From: a virus
Lineage: Duplodnaviria > Caudoviricetes
IMG/VR virus record: IMGVR_UViG_3300036760_000302
Span: 1-63,583 of that record
Direction: 5' to 3' (one strand)
DNA length: 63,583 nt
In this document: one piece after another, positions 8,369 through 33,260 of the stretch
Position numbering within the stretch: position 1 is the stretch's first letter
How the letters are laid out: the number at the start of each line of letters is the position of its first letter
Position numbers and translations under genes: made by a program
The notes under the pieces: generated by a model
Databases searched by the model: none
What the model was told of the DNA's origin: nothing
What the model saw: only the letters and a program-made list of their open reading frames with translations

Positions 8369-8422
8369 CACATGGCGAGTTTAAAGGGAATCCACAGTCG
8401 GGAGACTGCCTCTCGCCTCCAT

Positions 8423-8570: not shown

Positions 8571-9800
8571 ATGAAAGAAAGTATATTGAGATTACATTTT
8601 GAGGGCAAAAGCTATAATGAAATAAGGGCAATTCTTGGTTGTTCTAAAGGAACGATATCTTATCACTGCGGAGTAGAGCAGAAAGATAAAAGCAGAAAAA
8701 GAAAAAGAAAAAACAGGAAGGCGCGTAGAGGAATTAATAACAGAAGAAAGAAGATTGAGGTAAAAGAGGAGATATTAATATTACGCTCAGAAGGGAAAAC
8801 ATATCCTGAAATTGAAAAAATATTAAAATGCTCTCAAGGAAGAATAGGGTATTGGATTAAAAAAGAGAAGGGAATAACCCCATCTGATATATGCGAAAAC
8901 TGCAACAGAAAACATGATGGAAATTATGGCTCTGGTAGATTTTGTTCTCATAAATGCGCTCATGTAAGAAAAGGAGGTGGAAACGGGAATGCCATTAAAT
9001 GCAGAAAAAATAAAATAGAAAAAGAATTAACGAGACTAAATACAATTCATATATGTGAAAATTGTAACAATCAACATAGCGGAAATTACGGCAGTGGAAG
9101 ATTTTGCTCTTCTAAATGTGCAAGAGGATTTTCTACAAAAGAAAACAGAAAAAATATTAATGATGCCGTATCCGAAGCAATGACTGGTAGAAAGCATTCA
9201 GAAGAAAGAAAATTAAAAATATCTCCATTATTTGTATATTATTGGAAAGGTAAAAAGAAAAATGACGAAAACAGGAAAACTAAAATAAAACGCGGGAGGG
9301 GATATAAAAGGAAATTAAATCCAAAATCTTCAAAGGATTTAGCCGGATTAATAAAATTAGATAAAAAGTGCAGATATTGTAATGAAGCGGGGAGTGTTCT
9401 TTATCATGGTAGTGTATGTAAAAAATGCAAAAGTGAATTTTATATATTATATAGAGAAGCGTGTCGTTTTAAGTTCAATGTTTATCACTATCCAGAATAC
9501 TTTGATTTATCTTTAATAGAAAAACATAAATGGTATAAAGCAAAAAATAGGGGAGATAATTTAGGGGGAGTTAGCCGAGACCACCTATATTCTGTAAGTG
9601 ACGGATTTAAAAACAAGATTAATCCTGAAATCATTAGTCATCCGGCAAACTGCGAACTATTAATACATACAGACAATCAAAAGAAGCATAGCAAGAGCAA
9701 AATAACATTAGGTGAATTGATGAAGAGGATGAAAATATGGTCGGATAGCCAAACGGTTAGGCGCACCTCTGCAAAAGGTGATAAATCAGTTCAACTCTGA
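8571..9800 (+). CDS. Putative homing endonuclease (HTH repeats, Zn fingers, NUMOD3-like, HNH-like C-terminus)
   Basis: GKSYNEI..CSKGTISYH; CENCN..GSGRFCS twice; SRDHLYS..HPANCEL..N..K. Confidence 0.75.
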   Translation: MKESILRLHFEGKSYNEIRAILGCSKGTISYHCGVEQKDKSRKRKRKNRKARRGINNRRKKIEVKEEILILRSEGKTYPEIEKILKCSQGRIGYWIKKEKGITPSDICENCNRKHDGNYGSGRFCSHKCAHVRKGGGNGNAIKCRKNKIEKELTRLNTIHICENCNNQHSGNYGSGRFCSSKCARGFSTKENRKNINDAVSEAMTGRKHSEERKLKISPLFVYYWKGKKKNDENRKTKIKRGRGYKRKLNPKSSKDLAGLIKLDKKCRYCNEAGSVLYHGSVCKKCKSEFYILYREACRFKFNVYHYPEYFDLSLIEKHKWYKAKNRGDNLGGVSRDHLYSVSDGFKNKINPEIISHPANCELLIHTDNQKKHSKSKITLGELMKRMKIWSDSQTVRRTSAKGDKSVQL

Positions 9801-9809
9801 TTCCGACCT
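9739..9809 (+). tRNA. tRNA-Cys(GCA)
   Basis: GGTCGGA/TCCGACC-T; CACCT-CTGCAAA-AGGTG. Confidence 0.92.
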
Positions 9810-9884
9810 CTGAATGAAAAAGCGCACGACAGCCAGTAATGGTATGTTCAAAGTTGCAAATAAGAACGTGGAGAAATCCGGTCG

Positions 9885-9954
9885 CGGTAGTTGGTGTAGT
9901 GGCGCACGCTGAGATGATGTCTCAGAGGAATGGGTTCGACCCCCTAACTATCAA
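9885..9954 (+). tRNA. Atypical tRNA, anticodon GAT (Ile-like)
   Basis: CTGAG-ATGATGT-CTCAG; T-stem imperfect. Confidence 0.6.
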
Positions 9955-9956
9955 TC

Positions 9957-10030
9957 GGGTCTTTAGCTCAGTTGGTTAGAGCATCGGTCTCATAAACCGC
10001 AGGTCACAGGTTCGAGCCCTGTAAGACCCA
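9957..10030 (+). tRNA. tRNA(CAT), probably Ile2 (lysidine type)
   Basis: GGGTCTT/AAGACCC-A and Ile-type D-arm; loop CTCATAA. Confidence 0.8.
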
Positions 10031-10032
10031 CG

Positions 10033-10833
10033 ATGGCAAATAAAGAAAATGAAATGGATGAGAATAAACATATATGTAATCTGACTTGGTGCGAACAGCA
10101 CAGAGAATGTTTTTATAGAAATAAAAATCAATCTGCTGTTTCATATACCGGAGAAATATTTTGTTACCATAAAAATTGGACGGAATCATTACATAAAGAG
10201 CAAGAAATAAAAACCCCAGTGATAAAGCGAGTGGAGGATAGTGATGATAGCTGGAATTTCGGACAAGCAGTTCGGGCTAAGGTGAGTCAGCCTCACTGCG
10301 AAAATCCGAGTTGTAATTCGATTGCAGATTTGAAATATAATGATAAAGTAAATCTATGCTACAAATGCTTGGATTCGCTCCGGTCGCATCGGTCGAATTA
10401 TGAACTGGCGATATATTTTGGAAGTAAAATAAAAGTGCTAAAACTGTTAAAAGTAATTCAGGAGCTTGAAGCTCCGGTTAAAGAAAAGAAAACTATCGTG
10501 GTAAGATGCTCAAACATATACTGCTGTTCGACTGAGCAAGTCACTCAGCACCATCTGATTCCTAATCCGTACAGGAAAGGAGTTATCGGTGGTGGTAAGA
10601 AGATTCCTTTGTGCTGGGGTTGCCACGTTCGGGTTCATGGTCTTAGGTTTAATCATGAGCTTGCGTTCAATTATAATACGAAGTCAGCCGTGATTAAACT
10701 TTTGGAAGAAGATACGCTGTTCAGGCTTTACAAGATGAAGGTAATTACAAATCCGCCAGCTCTTCCAAAGCGCAAGATGACGGTAGTGGCACTAAATTCA
10801 GTGCCGAGTAGAATGATAGCAGTTGCCGGATAA
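10033..10833 (+). CDS. HNH-like Zn-binding protein
   Basis: QHHLIP..IPLCWGCHVRVH. Confidence 0.6.
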   Translation: MANKENEMDENKHICNLTWCEQHRECFYRNKNQSAVSYTGEIFCYHKNWTESLHKEQEIKTPVIKRVEDSDDSWNFGQAVRAKVSQPHCENPSCNSIADLKYNDKVNLCYKCLDSLRSHRSNYELAIYFGSKIKVLKLLKVIQELEAPVKEKKTIVVRCSNIYCCSTEQVTQHHLIPNPYRKGVIGGGKKIPLCWGCHVRVHGLRFNHELAFNYNTKSAVIKLLEEDTLFRLYKMKVITNPPALPKRKMTVVALNSVPSRMIAVAG

Positions 10834-10853
10834 AATCGTCCGGCAACTATAAT

Positions 10854-10927
10854 GGGGAATTAGCTCAGTTGCTTAGAGCGCCCGCCTTGCAAGCGGGAGG
10901 TCATCGGTTGAAGTCCGATATTCTCCA
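10854..10927 (+). tRNA. tRNA-Ala(TGC)
   Basis: GGGGAAT/ATTCTCC-A with G3:U70; loop CTTGCAA. Confidence 0.93.
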
Positions 10928-10994
10928 CAATAAAAAAAACGAACCAACGCTTTGTGGTTTAGTGAAAGTTCGTATATTTGTATAAAAAAAAGCC

Positions 10995-11546
10995 ATGAAG
11001 AGTAAAAGGATATTTAAAAACGGATACTATGTTGTACATAAGCCAGAGCATCCGAGAGCGTTTAACTCGAAAGGTAATAATTTGAGAGGGTATGTGTACG
11101 AGCACATAGTAGTTATGGAGGAAGATTTGGGGAGAATGATAAGGGATGATGAAGAAGTCCATCATCTTGATTTCAATAAGAGAAATAATTCTCCAGAAAA
11201 TTTAATAGTGTTGCCGAGTCCTCATCATAAGAGATTGCATCATTGGTTAATTGCTAATAAAATAAAGCCGATTCAGAAAGAGGTGTTAAGGTGTGAGGTT
11301 TGTGGCAAGCCATTGAGGTTGACTATGCAGAGTAAATATTGTAGCGAGATTTGTCGCAGGGAAGGTAAGAAGTCGAGAATAGATGAGGTGGGAATTGAGC
11401 AGATAAAAAAAGATTTGGTTGAGCTAAGGAGTCTCGTTAAGGTCGGAGCTAAATACGGATTGTCTGATAATGCTATAAAAAAATGGATGAAATTAAGATT
11501 TGGATACACGAATAAAGAAATTAGGAAAATGAAAAAGGGGGCATAA
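10995..11546 (+). CDS. HNH endonuclease
   Basis: YVYEHIVVME..VHHLDFNKRNNSPENL; TATATTTG promoter element at 10973..10980. Confidence 0.9.
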   Translation: MKSKRIFKNGYYVVHKPEHPRAFNSKGNNLRGYVYEHIVVMEEDLGRMIRDDEEVHHLDFNKRNNSPENLIVLPSPHHKRLHHWLIANKIKPIQKEVLRCEVCGKPLRLTMQSKYCSEICRREGKKSRIDEVGIEQIKKDLVELRSLVKVGAKYGLSDNAIKKWMKLRFGYTNKEIRKMKKGA

Positions 11547-11611
11547 CTCAGTTGGTTCAGAGTGCAATCCTTACAAGATTGAAGTCACAGGTTCGACCCC
11601 TGTTGCCCCCA
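11537..11611 (+). tRNA. tRNA-Val(TAC)
   Basis: GGGGGCA/TGCCCCC-A; loop CTTACAA. Confidence 0.93.
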
Positions 11612-11767
11612 CGATATGTAAAGAAAAGTGGAATTTTCTTTACATGAAAAACGGATATGTGAAGTTTCTTTACATGACAATCGGTAATATATTGCTGATT
11701 TGGATAAAAACGGAATAATCTTGTAGTAAAAAATACTAAATCGGCAATATATTACTGATTCTGGAAA

Positions 11768-11989
11768 ATGGAACTAAAATTGAAAACGGACATAGGGGAG
11801 CTCACGGCAGTATTACTGAGCGACACCATTGACGGTGGCAGTAAAACGGTCTGGACAGCTTGGATAAAGGAATATGCCGGAGCGGTAACTCAAGCTGACA
11901 GCATACAAGGGGCAATGGATAAGTTGCCGGAGATTTTGGACTTACTATTGAAAGTAGAAGCAGAACACTTAATAAACGGTAAAGATTAA
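11768..11989 (+). CDS. HicB-like antitoxin domain protein (orphan)
   Basis: WTAWIKEYAGAVTQADSIQGAMDKLPEIL resembles the HicB N-terminal fold. Confidence 0.6.
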   Translation: MELKLKTDIGELTAVLLSDTIDGGSKTVWTAWIKEYAGAVTQADSIQGAMDKLPEILDLLLKVEAEHLINGKD

Positions 11990-12052
11990 AAAAAACGACA
12001 ATGGAAATCATCGAAGTAGATATTGAAGGTAAGAAACGGGGCGATAAAATTC

Positions 12053-12125
12053 GACCTCGTAACTCAACTGGTAGAGTACCGCTCTTTTAAAGCGGGAGTT
12101 GTGCGTTCAAATCGCATCGGGGTCA
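12053..12125 (+). tRNA. tRNA-Lys(TTT)
   Basis: CCGCT-CTTTTAA-AGCGG. Confidence 0.92.
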
Positions 12126-12135
12126 CAAACTATTA

Positions 12136-12209
12136 GGGTTTGTAGCTCAACTGCTTAGAGCATCGCACTCTTAATGCGAGGGTTGTGGGTTGGAATCCCA
12201 CCAGACCCA
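12136..12209 (+). tRNA. tRNA-Lys(CTT)
   Basis: TCGCA-CTCTTAA-TGCGA. Confidence 0.92.
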
Positions 12210-12282
12210 CTAATAAATAAAATCAATAATTGAGTTGAACCTATGCTTATTAAAATTAGTATATTTACTTAAAATATACTAA

Positions 12283-12942
12283 ATGGGAAAGCCAAGAAAT
12301 ATTAAAGATGAAATAATAAGACTGTATTCGTCTGGAAAATTTTATAATGAAATAGCGAAAGAACTAAAGTGCTCTAAGGGTACGGTTAGTTATCACTGTG
12401 CTGAAATAAGAATAGAAAAGGGGCTCGATAAGAACGGGCAATGGAATAATGCTGACCCTGAAAAATACATAAAGGCGTGGCAGTTATGTAGGCAAAAGAT
12501 TGTAAATCATTATGTGAAAAAATTACTATCAGAGCCATATAAAAATTTAAGTTTTGAAAGGCTTAGGAAGAGAGTGATTTATGAGCAGAAGGAAAAGTGT
12601 AATCGCTGTAAGTTGTCGGAATGGCTCGGCATGAAGATAATGCTTGAATTAGAGCATAAAGACGGAGATAGGCATAATAATAAACGAAAAAATGTGGAAG
12701 GATTATGTCCAAATTGTCATAGTCAAACAAGTACATGGAGAGGGAAGAATAAGAGGAATAAAAGAGATTTAGTATCTGACGAGAAATTGATAATTTCATT
12801 AGTTAAGCATGGTTTTAATTTTAGAAGAGCTCTAATCGAAGTAGGTCTTGCTCCTAAAGGTGGTAACTATAAGAGATGCCATAAAATAAGTAGAGCACTA
12901 AGGGGTGGTCAGAATAAATCATCGAGCACTAAAAGTTTTTAA
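12283..12942 (+). CDS. HNH endonuclease with N-terminal HTH
   Basis: LELEHKDGDRHNNKRKNVEGLCPNCHSQT. Confidence 0.9.
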   Translation: MGKPRNIKDEIIRLYSSGKFYNEIAKELKCSKGTVSYHCAEIRIEKGLDKNGQWNNADPEKYIKAWQLCRQKIVNHYVKKLLSEPYKNLSFERLRKRVIYEQKEKCNRCKLSEWLGMKIMLELEHKDGDRHNNKRKNVEGLCPNCHSQTSTWRGKNKRNKRDLVSDEKLIISLVKHGFNFRRALIEVGLAPKGGNYKRCHKISRALRGGQNKSSSTKSF

Positions 12943-12983
12943 CAATCACTGAACGTAAAATAATTTGAAATAGATTTGCAGAA

Positions 12984-13190
12984 ATGTTTGAACTCATGCG
13001 CCATATCAGCTTACCTTTCAATAGGGACAGGAAAATCATTAGTTGTCAATACTGTGGCGGGATGGTTTCTTTCAGGGATAGCCATGCTAACCACGTTCTG
13101 TTCGCCTGCGACAAATGCAAGTCGCCAAAAGAAAAAAATGTAGAACCTAAAAAAGTTTATAACTTTGCCGATAATGATTTCGTATTCTAA
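12984..13190 (+). CDS. Small Zn-ribbon protein
   Basis: CQYC..CDKC. Confidence 0.45.
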   Translation: MFELMRHISLPFNRDRKIISCQYCGGMVSFRDSHANHVLFACDKCKSPKEKNVEPKKVYNFADNDFVF

Positions 13191-13308
13191 CCATATCATC
13201 AGCCTCAACGCTTCCTCTTTCCGTGCCCGCATCAGGCGCAGACGGTAATTCCGTCACATATTCCCTTTTGCCTTTCAACTCTTATTTATTTACAGCCTTT
13301 TTAAATCT

Positions 13309-13384
13309 GGGCTTGTAGTTCAACGGATAGAATAGAAGATTTCTAACCTTCTGATGGCGAGTTCGATTCTCCCCAAGCCTACCA
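13309..13384 (+). tRNA. tRNA-Arg(TCT), encoded CCA
   Basis: Loop TTTCTAA; cloverleaf. Confidence 0.9.
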
Positions 13385-13392
13385 GTGTATTT

Positions 13393-13465
13393 GCCCGCAT
13401 AGTTTAATAGGACAGAACCTCTCATTCCTAACGAGAAAATCTCAGTTCGATTCTGGGTGTGGGTG
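13393..13465 (+). tRNA. tRNA-Arg(CCT)
   Basis: Loop TTCCTAA; cloverleaf. Confidence 0.88.
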
Positions 13466-13470
13466 CAAAT

Positions 13471-13543
13471 GGGTTCGTAGTTTAACAGGATAGAATATAT
13501 CACTACGGATGATATGATGGGGATTCGACTTCCCCCGAACCCA
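13471..13543 (+). tRNA. tRNA-Arg(ACG)
   Basis: TATCA-CTACGGA-TGATA. Confidence 0.9.
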
Positions 13544-13547
13544 CAAC

Positions 13548-13620
13548 GCCTTTGTAGTTTAATTGGATAGAATATCAGATTTCGGCTCTGATGGTGGAGA
13601 TTCGAGTTCTCCCGAAGGCA
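13548..13620 (+). tRNA. tRNA-Arg(TCG)
   Basis: TCAGA-TTTCGGC-TCTGA. Confidence 0.9.
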
Positions 13621-13621
13621 C

Positions 13622-13660
13622 AAAAAAAAATCCCGAAACAAATTAATGCTTCGGGATTTA
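13622..13660. terminator. Terminator between tRNA operon 1 and the convergent gene
   Basis: AAATCCCGAA..TTCGGGATTT with a flanking A-tract. Confidence 0.65.
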
Positions 13661-13675
13661 TAATTATTATTGTTT

Positions 13676-14431
13676 TTATTTCAGTATTTGAAAACTTCCT
13701 TTATAAGAAACACGAATAATACCTCCACCGCTACCGATAGCATTACGCTGGACGGTGCAAATAGGATACTTTTGTTTGTCTTTATCATTTTTTCCGCACG
13801 GAGGATTTACGCTTGACGTGCAATCGTCACATCCGAATGGGAATACACCTATTTGCCCGCTATTATTACGGATACCTTTGTTCCAGATAGAATCTACCTT
13901 CGGGTACATAGAACTCGCATTCCAATCTTCTCCTCCTAAAAATTTACCGGAGATTATACAGTTAGCTCCATCTACGCAAGATATTTCAACTGTCTCTTGT
14001 GGATTTGGATACGGAGCATTGGATATATTCACGATAAACTCAAAGATGTTTATGCCGAATGGGTATCGAGGGATAGCGCAAGTTAGAGCGACTGTATCGA
14101 AAGAAAATTCACCATTGTATCCCATGCTGTCTGGCGCATAGTCAATGGTGGAGTCATGTGGAGCGAGAGTGAAGTATCCTTTGAGTGGAGCGACTGAATC
14201 AGTAATGAACGGAACTTGACCTATGTTTTGCAGGCAACCATTTGTTGCACCGAGAGATAACCATACGACTACCGCCTTGTCGGTTTCGTTTACAACTCTT
14301 ATTCTGGTAGTGGTATCAACGGCTGGCTCGGACTGCTCGTTAATTACGACAGTTTCTTTTACATTAATAGTGTTGTCGCATCCGAAGAGTGCGATGCAGA
14401 GTGCGAATAATAATAGGATTCTGTTTTTCAT
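13676..14431 (-). CDS. Cys-rich lipoprotein
   Basis: Signal peptide II with lipobox LFGC. Confidence 0.7.
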   Translation of the reverse strand: MKNRILLLFALCIALFGCDNTINVKETVVINEQSEPAVDTTTRIRVVNETDKAVVVWLSLGATNGCLQNIGQVPFITDSVAPLKGYFTLAPHDSTIDYAPDSMGYNGEFSFDTVALTCAIPRYPFGINIFEFIVNISNAPYPNPQETVEISCVDGANCIISGKFLGGEDWNASSMYPKVDSIWNKGIRNNSGQIGVFPFGCDDCTSSVNPPCGKNDKDKQKYPICTVQRNAIGSGGGIIRVSYKGSFQILK

Positions 14432-14468
14432 TTTGATTGGTTTGTTTTATTTGGGTTTATGGGGTTAG

Positions 14469-14538
14469 TAGTCACGATGGGGGTTGAACCCACTAAGACA
14501 GGGTTAGAATCCCATCCCTCCTCCACCGGAGCATGACT
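14469..14538 (-). tRNA. Atypical tRNA-like RNA with ATTCTAAC anticodon region (TCT, CTA or TCTA)
   Basis: AGTCATG/CGTGACT-A; GTGGG-TTCAACC-CCCAT; minus-strand TATCTTTG promoter element at 14547..14554. Confidence 0.6.
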
Positions 14539-14636
14539 ATTTCCGGCAAAGATAATCAATATTTGGATTAACAAATTTTAACATTGCCGTATTAAAGAAT
14601 ATTCCTATATTTACTTAACGAACAACAAATACTACC

Positions 14637-15047
14637 ATGAAATAGATTTCCAACACCGACAAGTTAACGATAGTCACCAGACGTGACATCACCGCAGGAT
14701 ACCAAGCCTGCCAGTCCGCACACGCTATTGCGGAGTTCATTTTCAAATACCCATTCCTTTCTTATCTCTGGCACAAACGCTCAAATTATGTAGCGTTACT
14801 TTCCGTTCAGGGAGAACCAGCACTCATGTACCTTATAAGTAAGCTCGAAGCTGAAAATATAAAGCACGTTGCATTTAAAGAGCCGGACATCGGCAATCAG
14901 ATTACAGCCGTTTGCATCGAACCATCGGATAAGGCGCGAGCTATTTGTGCCGGAATGCCGTTGGCATTAAAAGAATTTCGCTCCGAGAATAAAATCAACA
15001 AGACGACCTATAAATCATTAACCTCAGAATACCAACTCATTACATGA
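14637..15047 (+). CDS. Pth2-like peptidyl-tRNA hydrolase with in-frame TAG at codon 3
   Basis: MK*ISNTDKLTIVTRRDITAGYQACQSAHA..FKEPDIGNQITAVCI, in frame with ORF 14826..15047. Confidence 0.75.
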
Positions 15048-15082
15048 AATAGATTATAGGAAATATCAGAGAACCGCCTTAA
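15044..15082 (+). other. Second ATG-AAA-TAG-ATT mini-ORF (MK*IIGNIREPP*)
   Basis: Overlaps the pth stop (ATGA); repeats CATGAAATAGATT; hairpin CCGCC/GGCGG spans its stop. Confidence 0.55.
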
Positions 15083-15145
15083 AGTTCATGGGCGGAATAG
15101 AAATTTAATGAATTAGCAGTAATAATATTTTAAACTTTAAAAACA

Positions 15146-15577
15146 ATGAACACAATGAAAAATGAAAATCGCGCAGAGCTTCTCGAAGCGAACAGCGCAA
15201 ATGTTGAAGTAACATTCAATAAAATCCGAGAGTATGCAAACGCCAACGGATACATCATCATGAACGCCTTGAAAGTTCCAACGAATTTGATAGGCTTAAA
15301 CAAATCTCTTCACTTCGACAGCAAGAAGAAGAAAAAGGTTCTCAGGAATTACATCAATCGCCTTAATAAGCGTATGAGTCATTCCGGTGCGAACTGCTTT
15401 CTTCATTTTCTTTTTAAGACCATCTACAAAATGGATACTGCTCCAAGTGTAGAGTTTTCTGAAAAAGAAATAAAGATTCGTTCTGCTCGTAAGGCTTGGG
15501 TGAAAGCTCGTACAGAGGCAGAGAAACTCCGAGTCCTGTACCGGACGGAAAAGGGTGATTTTTATAAGAAGAAATAA
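15146..15577 (+). CDS. Hypothetical basic protein
   Basis: 143-aa ORF with A-rich start context. Confidence 0.7.
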   Translation: MNTMKNENRAELLEANSANVEVTFNKIREYANANGYIIMNALKVPTNLIGLNKSLHFDSKKKKKVLRNYINRLNKRMSHSGANCFLHFLFKTIYKMDTAPSVEFSEKEIKIRSARKAWVKARTEAEKLRVLYRTEKGDFYKKK

Positions 15578-15703
15578 TCCTATCTTTACAGTCTCATCTC
15601 CCAGTCCGAAGTACAAGGACGTTAGTGGAGAAGGAGCTCGAAAGACGCTAACCCATGATGGTTGGCGTTTTTTGGTTTAAGGAAATTACTATCTTTGCAT
15701 CAG

Positions 15704-16253
15704 GATTTCATTTTAAGTTCTTTGCTTATTGAGTTGTATTGACAATTTGTTTGGACGAGGGTTCGTAGCCCTCCGCCTCCACCAAATTTTAGTTAGGTAA
15801 CGCTATCGGTGTATGGGGCATCTCAAGGAACACATCTAACGTCAGGTGATGATACCGTAATTTGGCGGTTGTAACTTCTTGGACTGTCTTTGCGGGAAGC
15901 TAAACATACTTCCTGATAGTTCTCAACTGACAAGATAAAAAGATGTTTCGGTAACGAAATGTTCAACACTATCCATTGATGGTGCTTGTAGGCGGGAATA
16001 ACTGACTAATATTTTATTTTTACCTCCATCAACCATGCGTTGATGAATTACGGGAGCGTTCAGTTTTACTCTGGGCGCTTCTTGCTTTTGGGGGCGAATG
16101 TTTTGACAGCGAAGATGTCGGTATGATTTTCCGGTCAATAGACTGGAGCGAAATCTCAACGTCTAAATGACGAAAAAATAGAGTACCGTCTGGTCGCTTA
16201 GAGCGATGCAGGCAAACAGTTAAAAACCTCTCAGCGAAAGCTCAGGGGTTTTT
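15704..16253 (+). ncRNA. ssrA: Circularly permuted (two-piece) tmRNA: acceptor piece to 15784, coding piece from 16090, tag 16169..16201
   Basis: GAGGG-TTCGTAG-CCCTC-CGCCTCC-ACCA precedes GGGGGCG (G3:U70); 14-bp helix between pieces; tag DEKIEYRLVA*; promoter element 15690..15697; terminator 16222..16253. Confidence 0.85.
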
Positions 16254-16278
16254 CTGTTTTTATAACTATCTTTACAAA

Positions 16279-17103
16279 ATGAAAAAATATTTCATAGTAA
16301 CGATATTGCTAATTCTGATTATAGTTTCATGCGGACTGTTCAGGAGTAAGTCATCCCATTACGGAGAAGGCTCTGGATACGGCTCTGGCGGAAATTCGCA
16401 TACGGATTCTACTACCGTTAACTTTGATTCTTTATTAGGCAATGATGATATTTTCGAGAGCTTAGAGCCAGAACCTCATAAAGTAGTAATAACCTCTGGC
16501 GAGGGTTGGTATCCAAAACCTCCGAATCCTAATTTGAAAATAGTTAAGATTGAAAATACGCGGGTCATAAATAAATCCGTTGATATGTCCGATGGAAGGG
16601 TCGTGTATAAAATTCCTGAGCGAATGAAGATTCGCGAGACCAGCAAAGTCCTGCTTAGAATCTCCAAGTCTAAAGCAACGGTGAGCGTGTATGATAATCT
16701 GGACGGCACAGTTCGGACATCAGAAATTCCGGTGACGCAGACGATGGAAGTAAATCTTATTGACCCATCCCCAGCCGACAATAAATCATTTGAGATAGTG
16801 CCGGACAATAACGCGGTGCAGATAGTTGATGACGGGGAGACCTACACTGAATGGTCATGGAATGTCACTCCGGTTCGGGCTGGGAGCTCCAGCTTGAAGA
16901 TTGTAGTATCGGTAATCCGCGATGGGAATAAAAAAGACGTAGTGTATGAGGACTCGGTAGTGATTGAAAGAGACCTCCAGAATCAAATATCCTTCTTCTG
17001 GGGCAAATACTGGCAGTGGCTCATAGGAACATTCCTCCTGCCGTTTTTCTTGTGGCTGTATAAGCGAAAAAAGGATAAAAAAGAAGAAGAGAGAAATAAT
17101 TGA
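16279..17103 (+). CDS. Lipoprotein with C-terminal TM helix
   Basis: IVSC lipobox; WQWLIGTFLLPFFLWLY. Confidence 0.7.
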   Translation: MKKYFIVTILLILIIVSCGLFRSKSSHYGEGSGYGSGGNSHTDSTTVNFDSLLGNDDIFESLEPEPHKVVITSGEGWYPKPPNPNLKIVKIENTRVINKSVDMSDGRVVYKIPERMKIRETSKVLLRISKSKATVSVYDNLDGTVRTSEIPVTQTMEVNLIDPSPADNKSFEIVPDNNAVQIVDDGETYTEWSWNVTPVRAGSSSLKIVVSVIRDGNKKDVVYEDSVVIERDLQNQISFFWGKYWQWLIGTFLLPFFLWLYKRKKDKKEEERNN

Positions 17104-17109
17104 AAATAA

Positions 17110-17142
17110 TTTGCTCGCGTATTAAATTAATTCCTATATTTG
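17110..17142 (+). promoter_or_regulatory. Bacteroidota sigma70-type promoter of tRNA operon 2
   Basis: TTTG-N21-TATATTTG, consensus match. Confidence 0.8.
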
Positions 17143-17179
17143 CCTCGTGAGGCGCAAATCTCACTATGAAAAACAGAAA

Positions 17180-17272
17180 ATGAAAAATTTATCACTATAT
17201 AGTCTATCGTTGCTCCAACAGCATCCGCAGGGATACTCAGGGCTTCATTGCTATATGGTGATTGAAAAATAA
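17180..17272 (+). CDS. Leader peptide of tRNA operon 2 (30 aa)
   Basis: MKNLSLYSLSLLQQHPQGYSGLHCYMVIEK*. Confidence 0.78.
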   Translation: MKNLSLYSLSLLQQHPQGYSGLHCYMVIEK

Positions 17273-17331
17273 AACTTCCAACACCAAGCAGAGAACCCTG
17301 AGCAAGAAATTGTTTGGGGTTTTTTGTTTTT
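17236..17331 (+). terminator. Attenuator 2 (antiterminator 17236..17302; terminator 17294..17331)
   Basis: AACCCTGAGCAA-GAAA-TTGTTTGGGGTT plus U-tract; CTCAGGG/CCCTGAG, TGCT/AGCA, TGGTG/CACCA. Confidence 0.8.
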
Positions 17332-17349
17332 ATGTGGTCGGTTGTAATT

Positions 17350-17423
17350 CGGGGTGTAGCGCAGTCCGGTAGCGCATCTGTTTTGGGAACAGAGGGTCGT
17401 AGGTTCAAATCCTGCCACTCCGA
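17350..17423 (+). tRNA. tRNA-Pro(TGG)
   Basis: CGGGGTG/CACTCCG-A; loop TTTGGGA. Confidence 0.95.
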
Positions 17424-17430
17424 CAAATAT

Positions 17431-17505
17431 GGTGTTGTTAGTTCAGTCGGTTAGAACGCTTGATTGTGGTTCAAGAGGTCGCCAGTTCAAATCTGGTACA
17501 ACACC
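17431..17505 (+). tRNA. tRNA-His(GTG)
   Basis: G-1:C73; loop TTGTGGT. Confidence 0.93.
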
Positions 17506-17525
17506 CAGCTAAAATAAATGACAAA

Positions 17526-17723
17526 ATGAAAATAGATATAAGTTATATCAGCACTAAGTATTACGACAGGACAAACATTGTTCAATGGATGTTCATGTTT
17601 AAAAGATACACGGCTGTAAGGGGATTTATCATGAGGGTATTTGGAATTTATTTTAATGTGAGAGAAAATAATGCGACAGAAAAATTGATAAAATTATTTA
17701 TAGAATCACGGAAGTGTGGGTGA
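17526..17723 (+). CDS. Small hypothetical protein
   Basis: ATG at 17526; stop lies inside tRNA-Ser. Confidence 0.5.
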   Translation: MKIDISYISTKYYDRTNIVQWMFMFKRYTAVRGFIMRVFGIYFNVRENNATEKLIKLFIESRKCG

Positions 17724-17800
17724 GTGGCTGAAACCACTCGTTTGCTAAACGAGCAATCGGCTGAATAGTCGGTTCGAGAGTTCAAATCTCTCCGCTTCCG
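17710..17800 (+). tRNA. tRNA-Ser(GCT)
   Basis: Loop TTGCTAA; long variable arm. Confidence 0.93.
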
Positions 17801-17814
17801 CAAATAAAAAAAAG

Positions 17815-18045
17815 ATGAACATAGTTCTTAAAATAAAAGTAGAAGGTTACACCGCTATAATGGTGGAGGATAAAGAGGAAGGTTTGTTTACGATGTCCTG
17901 CTTGGAAAAAGGTGGAGCAATCATAACCGGAAATACGAAGGAGGAATGTCTGGAGAAATTCAAGAAGGCGATGGGGCTGGCGGTCGCGGTAGCAAAGCTG
18001 GCTGAGTTTGGAAGAAGTAGAACATTTAACTACAAAAGAAAATGA
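17815..18045 (+). CDS. HicB-like domain protein
   Basis: EDKEEGLFTMSCLEKGGAIITGNTKEECLEKF. Confidence 0.5.
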   Translation: MNIVLKIKVEGYTAIMVEDKEEGLFTMSCLEKGGAIITGNTKEECLEKFKKAMGLAVAVAKLAEFGRSRTFNYKRK

Positions 18046-18245
18046 ACACGGAAATTGAGGACATGATAATTGATAAATGGGCTGAGGATGTAATCAGCTC
18101 GGACTCGGAGCGAGTTATTGAATACAAGAATGGTAATGAAGGATTACTCGGATACTTTGTCGGAATGACGATGAAAAAATCGAGAGGTCAGTTGGATGTG
18201 AGTAAATTAAATAAGGCGATAAAAGAAAAACTCAATAAAATATAA
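18042..18245 (+). CDS. Stand-alone GatB/YqeY C-terminal domain protein
   Basis: EYKNGNEGLLGYFVGMTMKKSRGQLD. Confidence 0.75.
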   Translation: MNTEIEDMIIDKWAEDVISSDSERVIEYKNGNEGLLGYFVGMTMKKSRGQLDVSKLNKAIKEKLNKI

Positions 18246-18307
18246 AAACTGAAAATGGAAGCACCAGAAAAAATAGACGAGGACTCGTTCTCCGGAATAA
18301 CACATAC

Positions 18308-18402
18308 GGAGGCGTGGCAGAGTCAGCTTTATCGCACCAGTCTTGAAAACTGGCAATCACTTTAAGCTAAGTGGTTCGGGGGTTGAAATCCCTCCGCCTC
18401 CG
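18308..18402 (+). tRNA. tRNA-Ser(TGA)
   Basis: CCAGT-CTTGAAA-ACTGG; long variable arm. Confidence 0.92.
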
Positions 18403-18504
18403 CAAATAAATAAAAACAGGAAGTAAATAAATAAAACAAAATGAAAGACTATTATTATACATAGCGGGGATTGATTGGCAAGTCCACCTTCTCCGCAACG
18501 CAAT

Positions 18505-18588
18505 GGGAATGCGCCAGAGTTGGAGAGCTGGGTTTGTCTGTAAAACAAATGGCTTCGGTCTAAGTGAGTTCGATTCTCACAATTCCCA
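18505..18588 (+). tRNA. tRNA-Tyr(GTA)
   Basis: TTTGT-CTGTAAA-ACAAA. Confidence 0.88.
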
Positions 18589-18606
18589 CAGATGAAAATA
18601 AAATAT

Positions 18607-18690
18607 GCGAGCGTGGCGGAATCGGCATACGCACTGGTCTAAGAAGCCAGCGTCCGGAAGGAATTAAGAGTTCAACTCTCTTCGCTCGCA
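18607..18690 (+). tRNA. tRNA-Leu(AAG)
   Basis: CTGGT-CTAAGAA-GCCAG. Confidence 0.9.
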
Positions 18691-18694
18691 CAAA

Positions 18695-18778
18695 CCGCAA
18701 GTGGTGGAATCGGCAGACACATACGCCTCAGAAGCGTATGCTCGGAAGGGCGTAAGAGTTCAAGTCTCTTCTTGCGGA
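18695..18778 (+). tRNA. tRNA-Leu(CAG)
   Basis: TACGC-CTCAGAA-GCGTA. Confidence 0.9.
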
Positions 18779-18792
18779 CGAAAAATATAAAT

Positions 18793-18876
18793 GCGAGTAT
18801 GGCGGAACTGGCAGACGCGATGGACTCAAAACCCATTGGAGTGAAATCCGTAAGAGTTCGATTCTCTTTATTCGCA
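18793..18876 (+). tRNA. tRNA-Leu(CAA)
   Basis: Loop CTCAAAA. Confidence 0.9.
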
Positions 18877-18929
18877 CGATAAAAAAACTAAAATGAAAAC
18901 AACTGAACGATTATGTGCGAGGGAAATAT

Positions 18930-19015
18930 CCTCGCATGGCGAAATTGGTAAACGCGCTATCCTTAAAAGGTAGTGGGCAGTAATGCCCGTGTCGGTTCGA
19001 CTCCGATTGCGAGGA
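18930..19015 (+). tRNA. tRNA-Leu(TAA)
   Basis: CTATC-CTTAAAA-GGTAG. Confidence 0.9.
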
Positions 19016-19143
19016 CAGTACAAAGTAATACGATGTAATACAAAATAATACAATGAACAATTTAAACCAGCAACAGCAAGAATAAACAACGAAGGGGAGA
19101 ACCATCGTAAGGAGGGGTCTTGCCCTTCCGGTGATGAATATAT

Positions 19144-19214
19144 TCTCCTCTCGTCTAACGGTAGGACATCTGATTTTGGCTCAGAGAATTGCAGTTCAAA
19201 TCTGTGGGGGAGAA
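19144..19214 (+). tRNA. tRNA-Gln(TTG)
   Basis: TCTGA-TTTTGGC-TCAGA. Confidence 0.88.
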
Positions 19215-19251
19215 CAATAGAAAAATAATTATCTTTGCGGATATTTCTTAT

Positions 19252-19324
19252 TGACCTATGGTGTAATTGGCAACACGACTGATTTTGGTTCAGTAGAGTC
19301 TAAGTTCGAGCCTTAGTGGGTCAA
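19252..19324 (+). tRNA. tRNA-Gln(TTG)
   Basis: ACTGA-TTTTGGT-TCAGT. Confidence 0.9.
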
Positions 19325-19400
19325 CAAGCTGGATGCTGTTAATAAGTTTTGTAAGATTGTACTTGACAGATGTAATTACATTATTATCTTTGTGTCATAT

Positions 19401-19515
19401 TGCGGGGGAGTGAAACGGAAATTGCTGGGTTGTGGACTTAATTGCGAGCAACTTTAGTAAGAATCATTTTAGGCTCATAACCTAAAGATAGCAAGTTCGA
19501 CTCTTGCTCCCGCTA
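19401..19515 (+). tRNA. Initiator-like tRNA-Met(CAT) with about 40 extra nt in the D-loop
   Basis: TGCGGGG/TCCCGCT-A; TTAGG-CTCATAA-CCTAA; own TATCTTTG promoter element at 19385..19392. Confidence 0.75.
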
Positions 19516-19609
19516 CGAAAAAAAGTAAGTCTCCCCATAAAGACGAAAATACAGTGCGGGGATTTCGTGCATCTTACTTTTTTTTGAAGTTCTTTGATAA
19601 AAAAAATAT

Positions 19610-20525
19610 TGGCTCGTGGCGGAAACGCTCCCAAAGTTGATGAGGGAAAAATAATTCAATGGGTTACTGCTCAGGATTAACAGAAGCAAGTCCCGAAAGT
19701 TTCCAGCTTTTCTTTCAAAGCTGTTCGAGCCATTATTGAGATATTGATTCGAGGCGGAGTAATGACGCTACCGAGTTAGTCGGTAAGGCGATGGTGAAAA
19801 ATCCTTAGTCGAAGGGATGAGTTCCACACCGTCCGCGCAAGCGAACGGTAAATAAGCCCCGAAGTTGGAACACGCTCAGGTGTGAGACCTGTGCCGAATC
19901 AGTCGTATTGAAATATTGATAGTTGAGTCCATCGAGCCTATTGAACTTGGTGAAGCGGATGAGCAGAAATGCGTTGACTTCGCAGACTCTCTATCAATCC
20001 CTTCGGGGAAAAGAAATTGACAGGAGGACAGTAACCAGCAAGTTCGGAGACGCACAGGCTTCGGTGGAAGAAATTCCAGTCCTCAAAAATAAAGGTTGTG
20101 CGAAAGCGTGAAACAAACCTGTCGGTGTTATTTGAAATATTGACGATAAACTGTGGTCAAGCAAGGCGTATGTTGGCTCTGCCGTTATAAAAGTGGGCGT
20201 GAGTTAGTTTGCAGTCTGTAACAGGACAAGTGGACGGAAAACTTTCGTTATCTTATTGAGTGGACATATTTGGAGTGCCGAATCTCCTTCACAGAATCGT
20301 TAATCTTATTGGTAGTAAGTAGCGGTCGGGGCTAACCGATGAACGGACGAGCGAAAGCGGTGACTCCGCGTACAGCTTGACTGCCAGTGTTCTTTTAAAA
20401 TATTGTAATTGGTAGTGCTGTGTCGCAGGTTCAAATCCTGTGCATCTCTTAAAGGCGGTTAACGTGGACGGGATGTAAGCGCGAGGACGACTTAGGTTAT
20501 GGTTGGCGACAGAATATCAATTACA
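19610..20525 (+). ncRNA. Array of six stem-closed putative ncRNAs
   Basis: Terminal stems define 19610..19732, 19744..19902, 19912..20129, 20139..20304, 20307..20389, 20404..20525; GNRA/UUCG loops; no credible ORF. Confidence 0.65.
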
Positions 20526-20535
20526 TGAAAACTGA

Positions 20536-20575
20536 AAAATGCTCCAGCGATATATTTCGTTGGGGCATTTTTTTT
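20536..20575 (+). terminator. Intrinsic terminator after the ncRNA array
   Basis: AATGCTCCAGCGA..TCGTTGGGGCATT plus T-tract. Confidence 0.8.
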
Positions 20576-20687
20576 GTTTCAACACCTATCCTTTTCATTG
20601 TTGAAAAGTCCGAACCGGAGTGATTTATTCATTCCGTATATTTACATCCAATCAATTAATCAACAACAACAAAACAATTTAATTACA

Positions 20688-20891
20688 ATGAAAACAGGTA
20701 CAGTAAAATTTTACAATGAGTCGAAAGGATTCGGATTCATCAAGTCTGACGATGGCGGAAAAGAAGTATTCGTTCACGCCACAGGAATCGCTCAGGGCAC
20801 TCAGCTTAGAGAGAACGACAAAGTTACTTTCGAGGAAAGAGACGGAAAGAAAGGCGTTAATGCCGTGAATGTCGAACTCTGCGAAAATTAA
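20688..20891 (+). CDS. cspA: Cold-shock domain protein
   Basis: [25 protein letters not shown]. Confidence 0.93.
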
Positions 20892-30558: not shown

Positions 30559-31320
30559 TTATTCAAGGACAGTAGCTTTATTGCTTATCAGGGTGTTGAA
30601 TCCGTTCTTAATCGAATCGTATTGCTTAATATACTTTGACTCGATACCGAATATTACCGAATCTTCTGTCTTGGCTGGTAATATCTCCAGCACCTCAAAT
30701 GTCCAATCACTCAGCTTACTGTTGTTTCTCAGGTATATCCCAAACGGACTACTGCTATGGGTTAAGTGATTCCACCACCGGAAGAATGGCGCATTCCTTG
30801 TCTTTCCGATGTAGCACTTGCTGGTTGCCTTTTCCGTTATCTTATAGATGTAGTTTGGAGAATCTTTACTTACATGATACTCGTCATCTGGATACTCTAC
30901 GTCTTTGTAGTATTCTTTCTTGTGCTCATTCAGGCAATAATCCTCTTCACCGCAGAACACTTTTCCGCCAAATAGTTTTTCATATTTTCTTGGTCTATGT
31001 AAATATGTGTTTTCATATTTTTGCCCGCAATGACAACACTTCCAGCTTGTATCCTTAACGACCTGTTCTTTTTCCCATTCATATAACGGGAAAATCACTA
31101 CATAGAAAAACTGAGCGGTGTCTTTTGTTTCCTTTTGATATACTTTATTGTCAGGGAAGAATTGCGGATACTTTTGTAATAGAAATTGCTTCACCTCGTC
31201 TTTGTCCTTTGCCATAATTAATCTTTCCGCCACTATATTTTCAGAGCCAAATTCAACTTGGTTGATTGACTTCACTACTCTTATAAATGCCTTGAAGTAT
31301 TTTTTATCTTGCTTCTTCAT
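30559..31320 (-). CDS. GIY-YIG nuclease domain protein
   Basis: YIYKIT..CYIGKT..RW..H..ESKYI..GFN. Confidence 0.8.
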   Translation of the reverse strand: MKKQDKKYFKAFIRVVKSINQVEFGSENIVAERLIMAKDKDEVKQFLLQKYPQFFPDNKVYQKETKDTAQFFYVVIFPLYEWEKEQVVKDTSWKCCHCGQKYENTYLHRPRKYEKLFGGKVFCGEEDYCLNEHKKEYYKDVEYPDDEYHVSKDSPNYIYKITEKATSKCYIGKTRNAPFFRWWNHLTHSSSPFGIYLRNNSKLSDWTFEVLEILPAKTEDSVIFGIESKYIKQYDSIKNGFNTLISNKATVLE

Positions 31321-31322: not shown

Positions 31323-33260
31323 TTAGAAATCGTCCTCTATGCTATTGGTTTTTGGTTCGCCTGTATTTTGGTGTGATGATGATGGTTGTGGACTGCTTTG
31401 GTCTGGTTGATTGTTAAATAATGAGTACGAGGGCTCTACGAATTTAGATAAGTGAGGAATGAACATTAGGTTTTCTATTCCAATTCTTCCGTTACGATGC
31501 TTTGCGATTACTATTTCTGCCAAGCCCTGAGTAGAGTTTCCGTTCTCGTCCTCCAGTATGCCATAATACTCCGGTCTGTGGATAAATGCAACAAGGTCGG
31601 CATCTTGCTCTATCTGACCGGATTCGCGCAGGTCTGATAGTTGGGGTCTTTTAGCAGTTCCACCTCTTTGCTCAAGCATACGGCTTAACTGTGACAGTGC
31701 TATGATTGGAATATTTAGTTCTTTAGCAATCGCCTTGAGCGACCTTGAAATCAATCCAACCTCTTGCTCTCTATTCCCTTTTCCTTCTCCGCCAACCATT
31801 AGTTGCAGGTAGTCAATGACAATCATTGAAATATCATGCTGAGACTTCAATCTCTTCGCTTTTGCCTTGAACTCAAACAGCGATAAGGATGGGGTGTCAT
31901 CAATAAATAGCGGAGAGTGCGCGAGTTCAGTTATTTTTTCATTTAAAAACTGAAATTCTTCTGTACTGACCTGACCCTGCCTTAATTTCTCGCTGGAGAA
32001 CTCAGTCTCAGATGCAATTAATCTCATTACTAATTGCAGGGATGTCATTTCGAGACTAAATATTGCGACTGGTTTTTTAAATCTTACCGATGCGTTTCTG
32101 GCAAGAGCCATCATAAGGGCGGTATTATGAACCACCGTACAATCTTCAAGTAAGAATAATCTATTTCCGTCTAAGGTAAATCCATAATATATATCAACTA
32201 TATCTTGCTCAACACTAATTGGTGTTAATGCCTGCACTTCAATATCGCGTATATCAACCCTGTATCCCTTGTAATTATTTTTCCATTCGGATGATTTTTT
32301 CAAATACTCCCTAACTTCAATATTCGCTACATCTCCAGAATTGTTTTTTAAGGACAATATGTGGCTTTCATTAACCCTATAATCTATCCCGTGAAGTTGC
32401 TTCACATTATACATCATTTCCCTGCCAGATGTCGTAGATAGAACATTTCGAGGAGTAGAGTCATTGCCCATTAGTACGTCTCCTGTTTTTATATCCTCTA
32501 CATTTTTAATACAGCCATCGTACATCATTATTCTTGTTCCCTTCCCAAAACATTTTCCCATTGCCGGACGTGCCCCAAGAATAATCAAGTCTGAGTTCTG
32601 CCAGCCTCCGGTAATTGCATCGAGCCTTGTGAATCCAGATGGGATACCTTGAAATGTCTGGTCTCTGGAATCTTCTATTTGCTTTATGGCTTTTCCGAGA
32701 AGGGACTGAATGGTCTCGTAGTTCTTTCGGATGTTATCCTGACTTACGGAGAATAACTCATTCTCAGATTTTTCCATCAACTCAAATACGTCTGTTGAGT
32801 CCTCGTAAGAATTTTGAAGGATGTTAGTGCAAACTCTTATGAGTTCTCTTTGTAAAAATTTTTCTATTATTATTCGTGCATGAACTTCTACGTTTGCTGA
32901 TGATGCGATTCTATTTGTAAGCTGGGTGACGTAAAATGCTCCTCCTGCATTTTCGAGATTACCTTCTTTTTTTAATCTTTGAGTGACAGTTAAAATGTCA
33001 ATAGCGTCCGAATCGTTGAATAGGGATTGAATAGCGGTGTATATTAATATATGCGCTTCTTTGTAGAAGGTAGCTGGCTTTAAGATGTCAATTACATTGG
33101 CAAGTGCGCCTTTGTCCAGCATGATAGCGCCCAGCACAGCTTCTTCTAAGTCAACTGCGGATGGTGGTAGCTTGCCGAGTCCTATTAATTGCTGTGGAGT
33201 GATAGAGATTTTATTTCTCTTCCTTTTATCCCTAATATCTTTATTGTTGCCAGATTCCAT
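31323..33260 (-). CDS. dnaB: Replicative DNA helicase with intein
   Basis: GARPAMGK|..|T, FSLEM, IDYLQL, LSQLSR, DLRESG. Confidence 0.95.
   Translation of the reverse strand: MESGNNKDIRDKRKRNKISITPQQLIGLGKLPPSAVDLEEAVLGAIMLDKGALANVIDILKPATFYKEAHILIYTAIQSLFNDSDAIDILTVTQRLKKEGNLENAGGAFYVTQLTNRIASSANVEVHARIIIEKFLQRELIRVCTNILQNSYEDSTDVFELMEKSENELFSVSQDNIRKNYETIQSLLGKAIKQIEDSRDQTFQGIPSGFTRLDAITGGWQNSDLIILGARPAMGKCFGKGTRIMMYDGCIKNVEDIKTGDVLMGNDSTPRNVLSTTSGREMMYNVKQLHGIDYRVNESHILSLKNNSGDVANIEVREYLKKSSEWKNNYKGYRVDIRDIEVQALTPISVEQDIVDIYYGFTLDGNRLFLLEDCTVVHNTALMMALARNASVRFKKPVAIFSLEMTSLQLVMRLIASETEFSSEKLRQGQVSTEEFQFLNEKITELAHSPLFIDDTPSLSLFEFKAKAKRLKSQHDISMIVIDYLQLMVGGEGKGNREQEVGLISRSLKAIAKELNIPIIALSQLSRMLEQRGGTAKRPQLSDLRESGQIEQDADLVAFIHRPEYYGILEDENGNSTQGLAEIVIAKHRNGRIGIENLMFIPHLSKFVEPSYSLFNNQPDQSSPQPSSSHQNTGEPKTNSIEDDF
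32124..32552 (-). mobile_element. Mini-intein (143 aa) in the DnaB Walker A motif
   Basis: CFGKGT..VNESHIL..YGFTLDGNRLFLL..VVHN followed by Thr; no endonuclease domain. Confidence 0.9.

Follow-up and report, generated by a model that had tools for sequence, protein, structure and literature searches.

A candidate operon-like array of six unrecognised structured RNAs at the end of a phage tRNA cluster

Phage transfer RNA (tRNA) clusters are home to non-tRNA RNAs whose roles have been unknown for decades, among them RNAC and RNAD of phage T4 and the large RNAs GOLLD and ROOL. RNAC and RNAD are described as small RNAs of the T4 tRNA region with unknown roles (PMC3014915, PMC9697503) and as Northern-validated late RNAs of unknown function (PMC9697503). 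GOLLD and ROOL are described as phage- or prophage-encoded, highly structured RNAs of unknown function that are often located near tRNA islands, with the GOLLD linker sometimes holding tRNAs (PMC12286853), and an IMG/VR survey gives a figure of 8,495 candidate structured RNAs (PMC10690425). Here, we analyse a region at positions 19588-20575 of the virus record IMGVR_UViG_3300036760_000302 from IMG/VR, a stretch of 63,583 bp with inverted terminal repeats and an estimated completeness of 35% (the whole of which is referred to as the window). The best-supported reading is that this region extends the tRNA array with RNAs of new families, six of them or perhaps seven or eight, each of which folds independently.

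The window contains 33 tRNA genes detected by ARAGORN between 6512 and 19325, all on the + strand, and the array sits directly downstream of the last of them. It is therefore phage-encoded and adjacent to a tRNA island, as GOLLD, ROOL and OLE can be, and it puts non-tRNA RNA genes behind the last tRNA of a phage cluster, in the same orientation as the tRNAs, an arrangement of the kind known for T4 RNAC and RNAD. The region has no coding capacity. A first-pass annotation, made from the letters of the sequence, had described it as a stretch without a credible open reading frame (ORF), and this was confirmed: no ORF overlapping 19588-20575 is longer than 62 aa, the longest (19923-20111, with a TTG start) being followed by ORFs of 59 and 56 aa. 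The 62-aa frame carries two 1-nt insertions in one relative, and positions 19911-20118 are replaced entirely in another.

None of the units matches a family in Rfam. A scan with 4227 Rfam families at E ≤ 10, applied to the whole region and then to three pieces of it, gave no credible match to any unit, returning only terminator look-alikes and noise such as sR39 (18.4 bits against a 50-bit cut-off), which agrees with their earlier designation as unrecognised RNAs. GOLLD, ROOL and OLE were absent among the matches at this threshold, and the ribozyme and group I and group II intron families were represented only by group-II-D1D4-4 (13.2 bits against a 49-bit cut-off, E=1.1). The first-pass annotation had named decoy, anti-defence and catalytic RNAs as candidates, and none of the units fits a ribozyme family in Rfam. 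The best match of the tRNA clan inside the array was tRNA-Sec, at 14.9 bits against a 47-bit cut-off. ARAGORN called none of the six units as a tRNA, and with relaxed thresholds it produced on the array only scattered, mutually inconsistent calls that we regard as noise.

The array is divided into six units (U1 to U6) of 76-212 nt, which start at 19611, 19746, 19918, 20142, 20311 and 20405 and are separated by a recurring AU-rich linker, (T)TGAAATATT. Within 670 nt, the motif TTGARATATTG has three exact copies (19736, 19908 and 20132) and a fourth that differs at one position (20395), while the remaining junction, before 20311, is formed by CTTATT at 20305-20310. These three exact copies and one near-exact copy uphold the division into six units with AU-rich spacers made in the first-pass annotation, which had also likened the spacers to the sequences before several tRNAs. 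All six units start with G after (A/T)TATT and have T at position -1. Among the 33 tRNAs of the window, T is found at -1 in 22, and ATAT or TATT lies just upstream of 12, against a background of 11.5%, in keeping with that comparison.

When the units were folded alone, terminal helices of 6 bp in U1, U2, U4 and U5 and of 10 bp in U6 were predicted, with pair probabilities of 0.83-1.0, and an unpaired A lies right after the terminal helix in the five units where this helix is clear (U1, U2, U4, U5 and U6). The terminal stems proposed earlier are therefore real, but their length of 7-11 bp was overstated, and U3 as a whole is closed only by a weak match of 6 bp, of which three are G.U pairs. If the linkers are taken to set the unit starts, all six units can close with six contiguous pairs. 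Closure of at least five units was reached in 0 of 20,000 shuffles, and 258 of 2646 comparable sites in the rest of the window close in this way. A terminal helix followed by A is present in five of the six units, and a T-arm-like hairpin in U6 only.

All six units lie on the + strand. U1 (19611-19732, 122 nt) is closed by a 6-bp helix (19611-19616 with 19726-19731) followed by the unpaired A at 19732, and it contains a GAAA-capped hairpin and a variable centre. Linker 1 (19733-19745, TTATTGAGATATT) leads to U2 (19746-19901, 156 nt), with a 6-bp helix (19746-19751 with 19895-19900), the unpaired A at 19901, a GCAA-capped hairpin and a long-range helix that pairs 19821-19826 with 19866-19871. 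Linker 2 (19902-19917, GTCGTATTGAAATATT) precedes U3 (19918-20129, 212 nt), which is probably composite, and linker 3 (20130-20141, ATTTGAAATATT) precedes U4 (20142-20302, 161 nt), closed by 20142-20147 with 20296-20301 (6 bp) before the unpaired A at 20302. U5 (20311-20386, 76 nt) pairs 20311-20316 with 20380-20385 (6 bp), ends with the unpaired A at 20386 and encloses two hairpins in a three-way junction. After linker 5 (20387-20404, GTGTTCTTTTAAAATATT), U6 (20405-20525, 121 nt) is closed by a 10-bp helix (20405-20414 with 20515-20524) and the unpaired A at 20525. Inside it, a tRNA-type T-arm hairpin, GCAGG-UUCAAAU-CCUGU at 20425-20441, is followed by a helix of 20443-20448 with 20470-20475. 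The T-arm hairpin, over 23 nt, is 91% identical to the T arm of the tRNA-Phe of the window.

The minimum free energy (MFE) fold of U3 has three successive parts: a domain at 19918-19995 closed by GAUAG/CUAUC, a UUCG hairpin at 19998-20009 and a domain at 20016-20126 with an 8-bp closing helix, so that in this model U3 is probably a composite of separately folding parts. Nested helices crossed by a further pairing had been proposed for this unit. The complementary segments do exist, but the helices have pair probabilities of about 0, and a fold with both nested helices enforced reaches -53.4 kcal/mol against -61.4 kcal/mol for the MFE, that is, it is 8 kcal/mol dearer. Because the enforced helices cost energy and have no weight in the ensemble, the pseudoknot, although possible, is supported neither by energy nor by the scarce variation seen.

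Statistics of three kinds, on folding, tetraloops and natural variation, are specific to one strand and point to the + strand. Computed against dinucleotide shuffles, the folding z-scores of the six units on the + strand range from -1.4 to -2.7 (mean -1.92, Stouffer Z -4.7), compared with averages of -2.09 for 12 phage tRNAs and -0.26 for 12 segments of helicase mRNA, and the whole region has a z-score of -3.6. On the - strand, U3 to U6 fold worse than on the + strand, with no signal in U4 to U6. The + strand has eight hairpins capped by GNRA or UNCG tetraloops, about four times the shuffle value of 1.9 ± 1.4 (P=0.0002); the - strand has three, and the rest of the window has 1.5 per kb. When the whole region was folded at once, the terminal helices of U1 (P=0.93-0.99), of the first part of U3 and of U6 (0.87-0.98) held at about 0.9 or above.

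Natural variation was drawn from contigs of four sediment-metagenome runs (X2 to X5), which represent close relatives; the table of differences omits 6 substitutions and 15 indels. No RNA dataset was among the 18 runs listed, and shares below 0.2 did not count as evidence of habitat. Substitutions were scored on MFE models that had not been refined by the variation, with a null in which the same base changes were placed at random positions of the same base. Variation tends to preserve pairs: 14 substitutions keep a canonical pair, 7 break one and 17 fall on unpaired positions, against null expectations of 8.8, 15.6 and 14.4, respectively, so breaks are about half as frequent as expected by chance (P(broken≤7)=0.0002). 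In U2, the pair 19835/19842 changes from G-C to U.G, accompanied by 2-nt insertions on both strands of the same hairpin, whose loop changes from GCAA to GAAA in relatives. Also in U2, both sides of 19826/19866 are changed together, from A-U to G-C, which supports a helix within 1 kcal/mol of the MFE. In U6, the G.U pair 20455/20465 becomes A-U in one run and G-C in the three others, and the U.G pair of 20447 becomes C-G in all four runs. We disregarded contigs whose match was confined to 19724-19759 (6 mismatches in 36 nt) or to 19469-19516, treating such matches as due to chance or to general tRNA similarity.

The relatives also differ in the content of the array. In one contig of run X2, which begins its match in U2, 208 nt of U3 (19911-20118) are replaced by 57 unrelated bases, with the joint running from 19910 to 20119; to the right of this joint, up to 20570, only 6 of 452 positions differ, and the replacement keeps the 3' strand of the last closing helix of U3. 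The X2 relative shows many substitutions and indels in U1 and U2 and only two differing positions across U4 and U5 together, and it diverges completely upstream of 19604. The contigs over U4-U5 show at most two listed differences, both in U4 and in run X2, and no differences from the window are listed for U5 in the covering contigs of runs X3 and X5. Because one relative replaces unit 3 with 57 other bases, the units, judged by sequence comparison, behave as cassettes exchangeable among related phages.

Further signals flank the array. An intrinsic terminator on the + strand (20534-20581) consists of a 17-bp stem with a 6-nt loop (20534-20573) and a T run, with pair probabilities of 0.99-1.0 in the whole-region fold; the strong terminator that the first-pass annotation had placed after the run is clearly there. 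At the other end, the boxA-like 9-mer GTTCTTTGA is located at 19589-19597 on the + strand, and the pattern GYTCTTTRA has four + strand matches in the tRNA array (6611, 7242, 8504 and 19589). The Cytophagales locus L126 has the same 9-mer both at 139 nt before the 16S gene and in the spacer between 16S and 23S; a second Cytophagales locus (L128) has it in that spacer, and it was not found in a third, short one (L127). The rrn leader upstream of the 16S gene and the 16S-23S spacer are the canonical positions of boxA. The proposed boxA-like site before the run thus holds as a motif, with the identical 9-mer at rrn positions in two of three Cytophagales loci, and 19589 carries a boxA sequence of the rrn type for a host clade that is judged only from the relatives of DnaB. 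Since the nearest cellular relatives of the DnaB-like helicase in the window lie in Cytophagales and other Bacteroidota, the host of the phage is probably a member of Bacteroidota. With no Rfam match, the + strand statistics, the recurrent linkers, the boxA core and the terminator, the description of the locus as an operon-like array of unrecognised structured RNAs is supported.

Upstream of the boxA core, a promoter-like site at 19363-19392 on the + strand consists of TTGACA, 16 nt and TATCTT, with 10 of 12 hexamer positions matched. Within it, TATCTTTG agrees with the Bacteroidota -7 box, TAnnTTTG, and the site ends a few bases before an initiator-tRNA-like element (U0, 19401-19516, + strand). 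A stricter Bacteroidota-type promoter pattern is found at 17110-17142, before the last block of tRNAs. U0 resembles tRNA-fMet, having a CAU anticodon arm, a T arm and a 7-bp acceptor, and its 5' and 3' ends are the same as those of the tRNA-Met at 7795-7871, with a D region enlarged by about 40 nt. It scores 23.8 bits with the Rfam tRNA model, under the 29-bit cut-off, and is not called by ARAGORN; its T-arm part matches a tRNA-Met of a huge phage. U0 is not part of the array but probably heads its transcription unit. Between U0 and U1, an AU-rich hairpin (19513-19589, + strand) with 17-nt arms that are 88% complementary, 43 nt between them and a following T8 is present in the MFE of the whole region and may act as a terminator-like or processing hairpin. 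Downstream of the array, a cold-shock-domain (CSD) gene (20688-20891) and an acyl-carrier-protein gene follow on the + strand.

Compared with the systems described so far, the array shares features with several of them. Like T4 RNAC and RNAD, it would place small non-tRNA RNAs in a phage tRNA cluster, the T4 pair being co-transcribed with its cluster according to the passages cited above, but unlike the two RNAs of T4 there are six here, a linker recurs between them, and the locus has a boxA core and a terminator of its own. It resembles GOLLD and ROOL in being phage-encoded, highly structured and located at a tRNA island. Each of these is a single RNA of 580 to more than 800 nt that forms homo-oligomeric cages (PMC12286853), whereas the array is modular, has repeated linkers, has one module exchanged in a relative and matches no covariance model. 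With rrn operons, it shares GTTCTTTGA, found in the Cytophagales rrn leader and spacer, and a succession of RNAs with paired ends followed by a terminator; however, it contains no rRNA genes, its terminal helices of 6-10 bp are far shorter than RNase III stalks, and a close relative has no boxA motif directly upstream of U1. Finally, the units resemble the tRNAs of the window in the U at -1, the ATAT/TATT leader, the G at +1 and the terminal helix followed by an unpaired A, to which U6 alone adds a T-arm hairpin with a UUCAAAU loop. They differ from tRNAs in having no cloverleaf, no anticodon arm, lengths of 76-212 nt and no tRNA call by ARAGORN or Rfam.

The interpretation that we favour, with about as much confidence as doubt, is that the array is a polycistronic, non-coding and rrn-like extension of the phage tRNA array that is cut into small RNAs. 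A single + strand transcript would start at or before U0, end at the terminator at 20534-20581 and carry, besides the boxA core, six RNA modules that fold independently and fall into no known family. The modules have tRNA-like ends (an AU-rich leader closing on U at -1, a G at +1, then a terminal helix with an unpaired A behind it), and the host tRNA-processing machinery would release stable RNAs of 76-212 nt from the precursor, with RNase P cutting on the 5' side, RNase Z or exonucleases acting on the 3' side and RNase E/G possibly cutting in the AU-rich linkers, also on the 3' side. From the tRNA-like boundaries of the units, we infer release by RNase P and by RNase Z or exonucleases. Co-transcription and the identity of the processing enzymes have the same standing, and from the boxA sequence, we infer that Nus factors may provide antitermination. 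The weakest step, which is a guess, is that the modules might be protein-binding or decoy RNAs directed against host factors of translation, tRNA metabolism or RNA processing in the course of infection.

Several observations weigh against this interpretation. The terminator-like hairpin at 19513-19589 stands between the promoter-like site and U0 on one side and the boxA core on the other, and in the X2 relative, the stretch of 30 bases leading up to 19604 lacks boxA and carries another hairpin with a T run. The terminal helices, that of U6 aside, measure 6 bp, against 7 bp in tRNAs, and none of the six units forms a cloverleaf. In the whole-region fold, the terminal helices of U2, U4 and U5 drop to probabilities of 0.19-0.34 (0.32 for U4), and for U1 and U2 the - strand folds no worse than the + strand (z-scores of -2.65 and -3.67). 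As for the variation, seven substitutions break predicted pairs, five of them in indel-rich segments, and the unrefined models count one double-sided change only (P=0.09), a second one resting on a helix that was chosen because of that change. The relatives that supply the variation are, moreover, all close.

An alternative, which we consider unlikely, is that the region encodes a single large 'ornate' RNA, about 930 nt long and functionally analogous to GOLLD or ROOL, so that the units are domains of one molecule. The position at the end of a tRNA island, the size, the many tetraloop-capped helices and the z-score of the whole region would all suit such an RNA, as would the phage or prophage origin and frequent proximity to tRNA islands reported for GOLLD and ROOL (PMC12286853), and cleavage in the linkers is itself a prediction. 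However, the Rfam scan at E ≤ 10, in which both GOLLD and ROOL were included, gave no match, the linker recurs four times and every unit closes on itself. A single molecule is also hard to reconcile with the relative that exchanges 208 nt of U3 for 57 nt and leaves the neighbouring units intact, and no long-range helix between units exceeded the chance level in our search. Even less in keeping with the array, and very improbable, is a reading of the region as an extended structured leader or as a cis-regulatory element, such as one serving the CSD gene at 20688-20891, or as a set of small-protein genes. The CSD and acyl-carrier-protein genes do follow on the same strand and short ORFs of up to 62 aa are present, but the 17-bp terminator stands between the array and the CSD gene, and the 62-aa frame either contains two 1-nt insertions or is wholly replaced in relatives.

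It is also improbable, in our view, that the region is decaying debris, that is, functionless remnants of tRNA genes with scars of homing endonucleases or introns, whether transcribed or not. Such a history is suggested by the half tRNA-Met, HNH-like ORF and full tRNA-Met found in succession within the tRNA array (described below), by U0, which can be read as a tRNA with an insertion, by the 23 nt of the T arm of U6 that are 91% identical to tRNA-Phe, and by the HNH and GIY-YIG genes scattered through the window. On the other hand, U1 to U5 have no similarity to tRNAs, the boundaries between units are regularly marked by the linker, substitutions tend to spare predicted pairs and tetraloops are enriched on one strand. 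The relatives point in the same direction, with at most two listed differences in the U4-U5 contigs (both in U4, run X2) while U1 and U2 diverge. Beyond the favoured polycistronic, tRNA-punctuated reading, a bolder version of it, to which we give little credence, would make the locus an 'RNA cassette island': a boxA-driven, rrn-like operon of unrelated structured RNAs with tRNA-like punctuation, released by host enzymes as decoys or sponges. These would target host proteins of defence, of tRNA targeting or of RNA processing, and related phages would swap the cassettes by recombination at the conserved linkers.

Other identities were considered and rejected. A CRISPR array, for which direct repeats of at least 20 nt and spacers of near-constant length were required, does not fit repeats of only 12-14 nt with start-to-start spacings of 172, 224 and 263 nt. 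U6 was also considered as a permuted tRNA: default ARAGORN called 0 of 266 permuted joins, and with relaxed thresholds, it called 23, 58 and 206 of the 266, compared with 33, 66 and 95 in shuffled-core controls, and this reading was rejected because it performs no better than the controls. Complementarity of the array to the rest of the window, searched for antisense targets, does not exceed 12 nt, which is the chance level. A 10-nt complement between U6 and the anticodon arm of U0, and 10-mers shared between units, are likewise at the level expected by chance for a region of 1.2 kb.

Searches for homologues of the array returned little beyond tRNA-like sequence. With blastn in its 'distant' setting, 50,697 GenBank phage records yielded one match (LR756504.1), on the tRNA-like U0 only, and no sequence homology to the T4 RNAs, which are processed by RNase P, was found in that search. 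Against 401 sampled Bacteroidota genomes, blastn gave only two short matches to AT-rich linker sequence, and against five Cytophagales and relatives nothing below E=0.07. Exact 23-24-mers of U6 and U5 had no match in viral contigs or in genome contigs, and the metagenome scan returned one contig, with an ordinary tRNA that has the same T arm. A degenerate motif built from the shared 5' ends of U1 and U2 hit 26 viral loci, all of them chance-looking matches inside coding sequence, and was discarded.

Neighbouring proteins were also used as bait. A neighbouring 172-aa ORF has seven homologues (52-83% identity) in a protein collection, one of them encoded on a 78-kb contig; as a single-sequence pattern, it found no match in viral contigs, and as an alignment of eight sequences, it matched 91 viral and 62 genome stretches, none of which encodes a relative. 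The single DnaB sequence matched 12 stretches without any relative among them, and the DnaB alignment found five loci of at most 54% identity, with no array-like sequence in the three records then searched. A tblastn search of a phage protein against GenBank phages gave only relatives below 33% identity.

The tRNA array itself (6512-19325) has further features. In most of its tRNA genes, the end called by ARAGORN lies one base beyond that of Rfam, the extra base after the discriminator being a C that is followed by A-rich sequence, so the full CCA is not encoded; this C is not found in the six array units. Two segments between the tRNA genes, 6642-6926 and 7010-7162, have no long ORF and no Rfam match and show z-scores of -2.3 and -2.05. 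The MFE fold of the first is closed by an 8-bp helix with the core GCAGGAC/GUCCUGC, and this segment is preceded by GTTCTTTGA and AAATATTG, as the array units are. A 5' half of tRNA-Met (acceptor strand, D arm and CAU anticodon arm) is located at about 7350-7400. It is followed on its 3' side by a 132-aa ORF (7436-7834) with HNH-like Cys/His motifs and no Pfam match, and then by the complete tRNA-Met at 7795-7871. This layout of 7350-7871 suggests an inserted homing-endonuclease gene and a partly duplicated target.

Mobile-element genes are also present in the window, with the coordinates 3474-4421, 10995-11546 and 30559-31320; they encode a transposase of the IS1595 family, an HNH_3 endonuclease located within the tRNA array and a GIY-YIG protein. 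At gathering thresholds, the sole Rfam addition to the tRNAs in the window is a HEARO (OMEGA-type) RNA at 38373-38606 (109 bits; within 36064-38606, - strand). It adjoins an ORF with RRXRR and HNH domains (IscB-like), and the same long frame also has a RecT domain. The DnaB-like helicase (31323-33260, - strand, 645 aa) carries intein or homing-endonuclease Pfam domains, which are absent from its closest relatives, proteins of about 505 aa that share 71-83% identity with it over the alignment. The shorter, domain-free relatives suggest that the phage copy of DnaB holds a mini-intein.

With this locus, the RNAs of phage tRNA clusters would be joined by six new candidate families, set in a single compact unit with clear punctuation, and the natural replacement of one cassette in a relative shows that the modules are separable. 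Should the modules turn out to be processed and to bind host factors, they would give a workable starting point for studying the roles of the RNAs that reside in such clusters and would indicate that phages borrow the rrn antitermination signal of their hosts for non-coding operons. Were the 'RNA cassette island' to prove true, it would be the RNA counterpart of the protein anti-defence islands.

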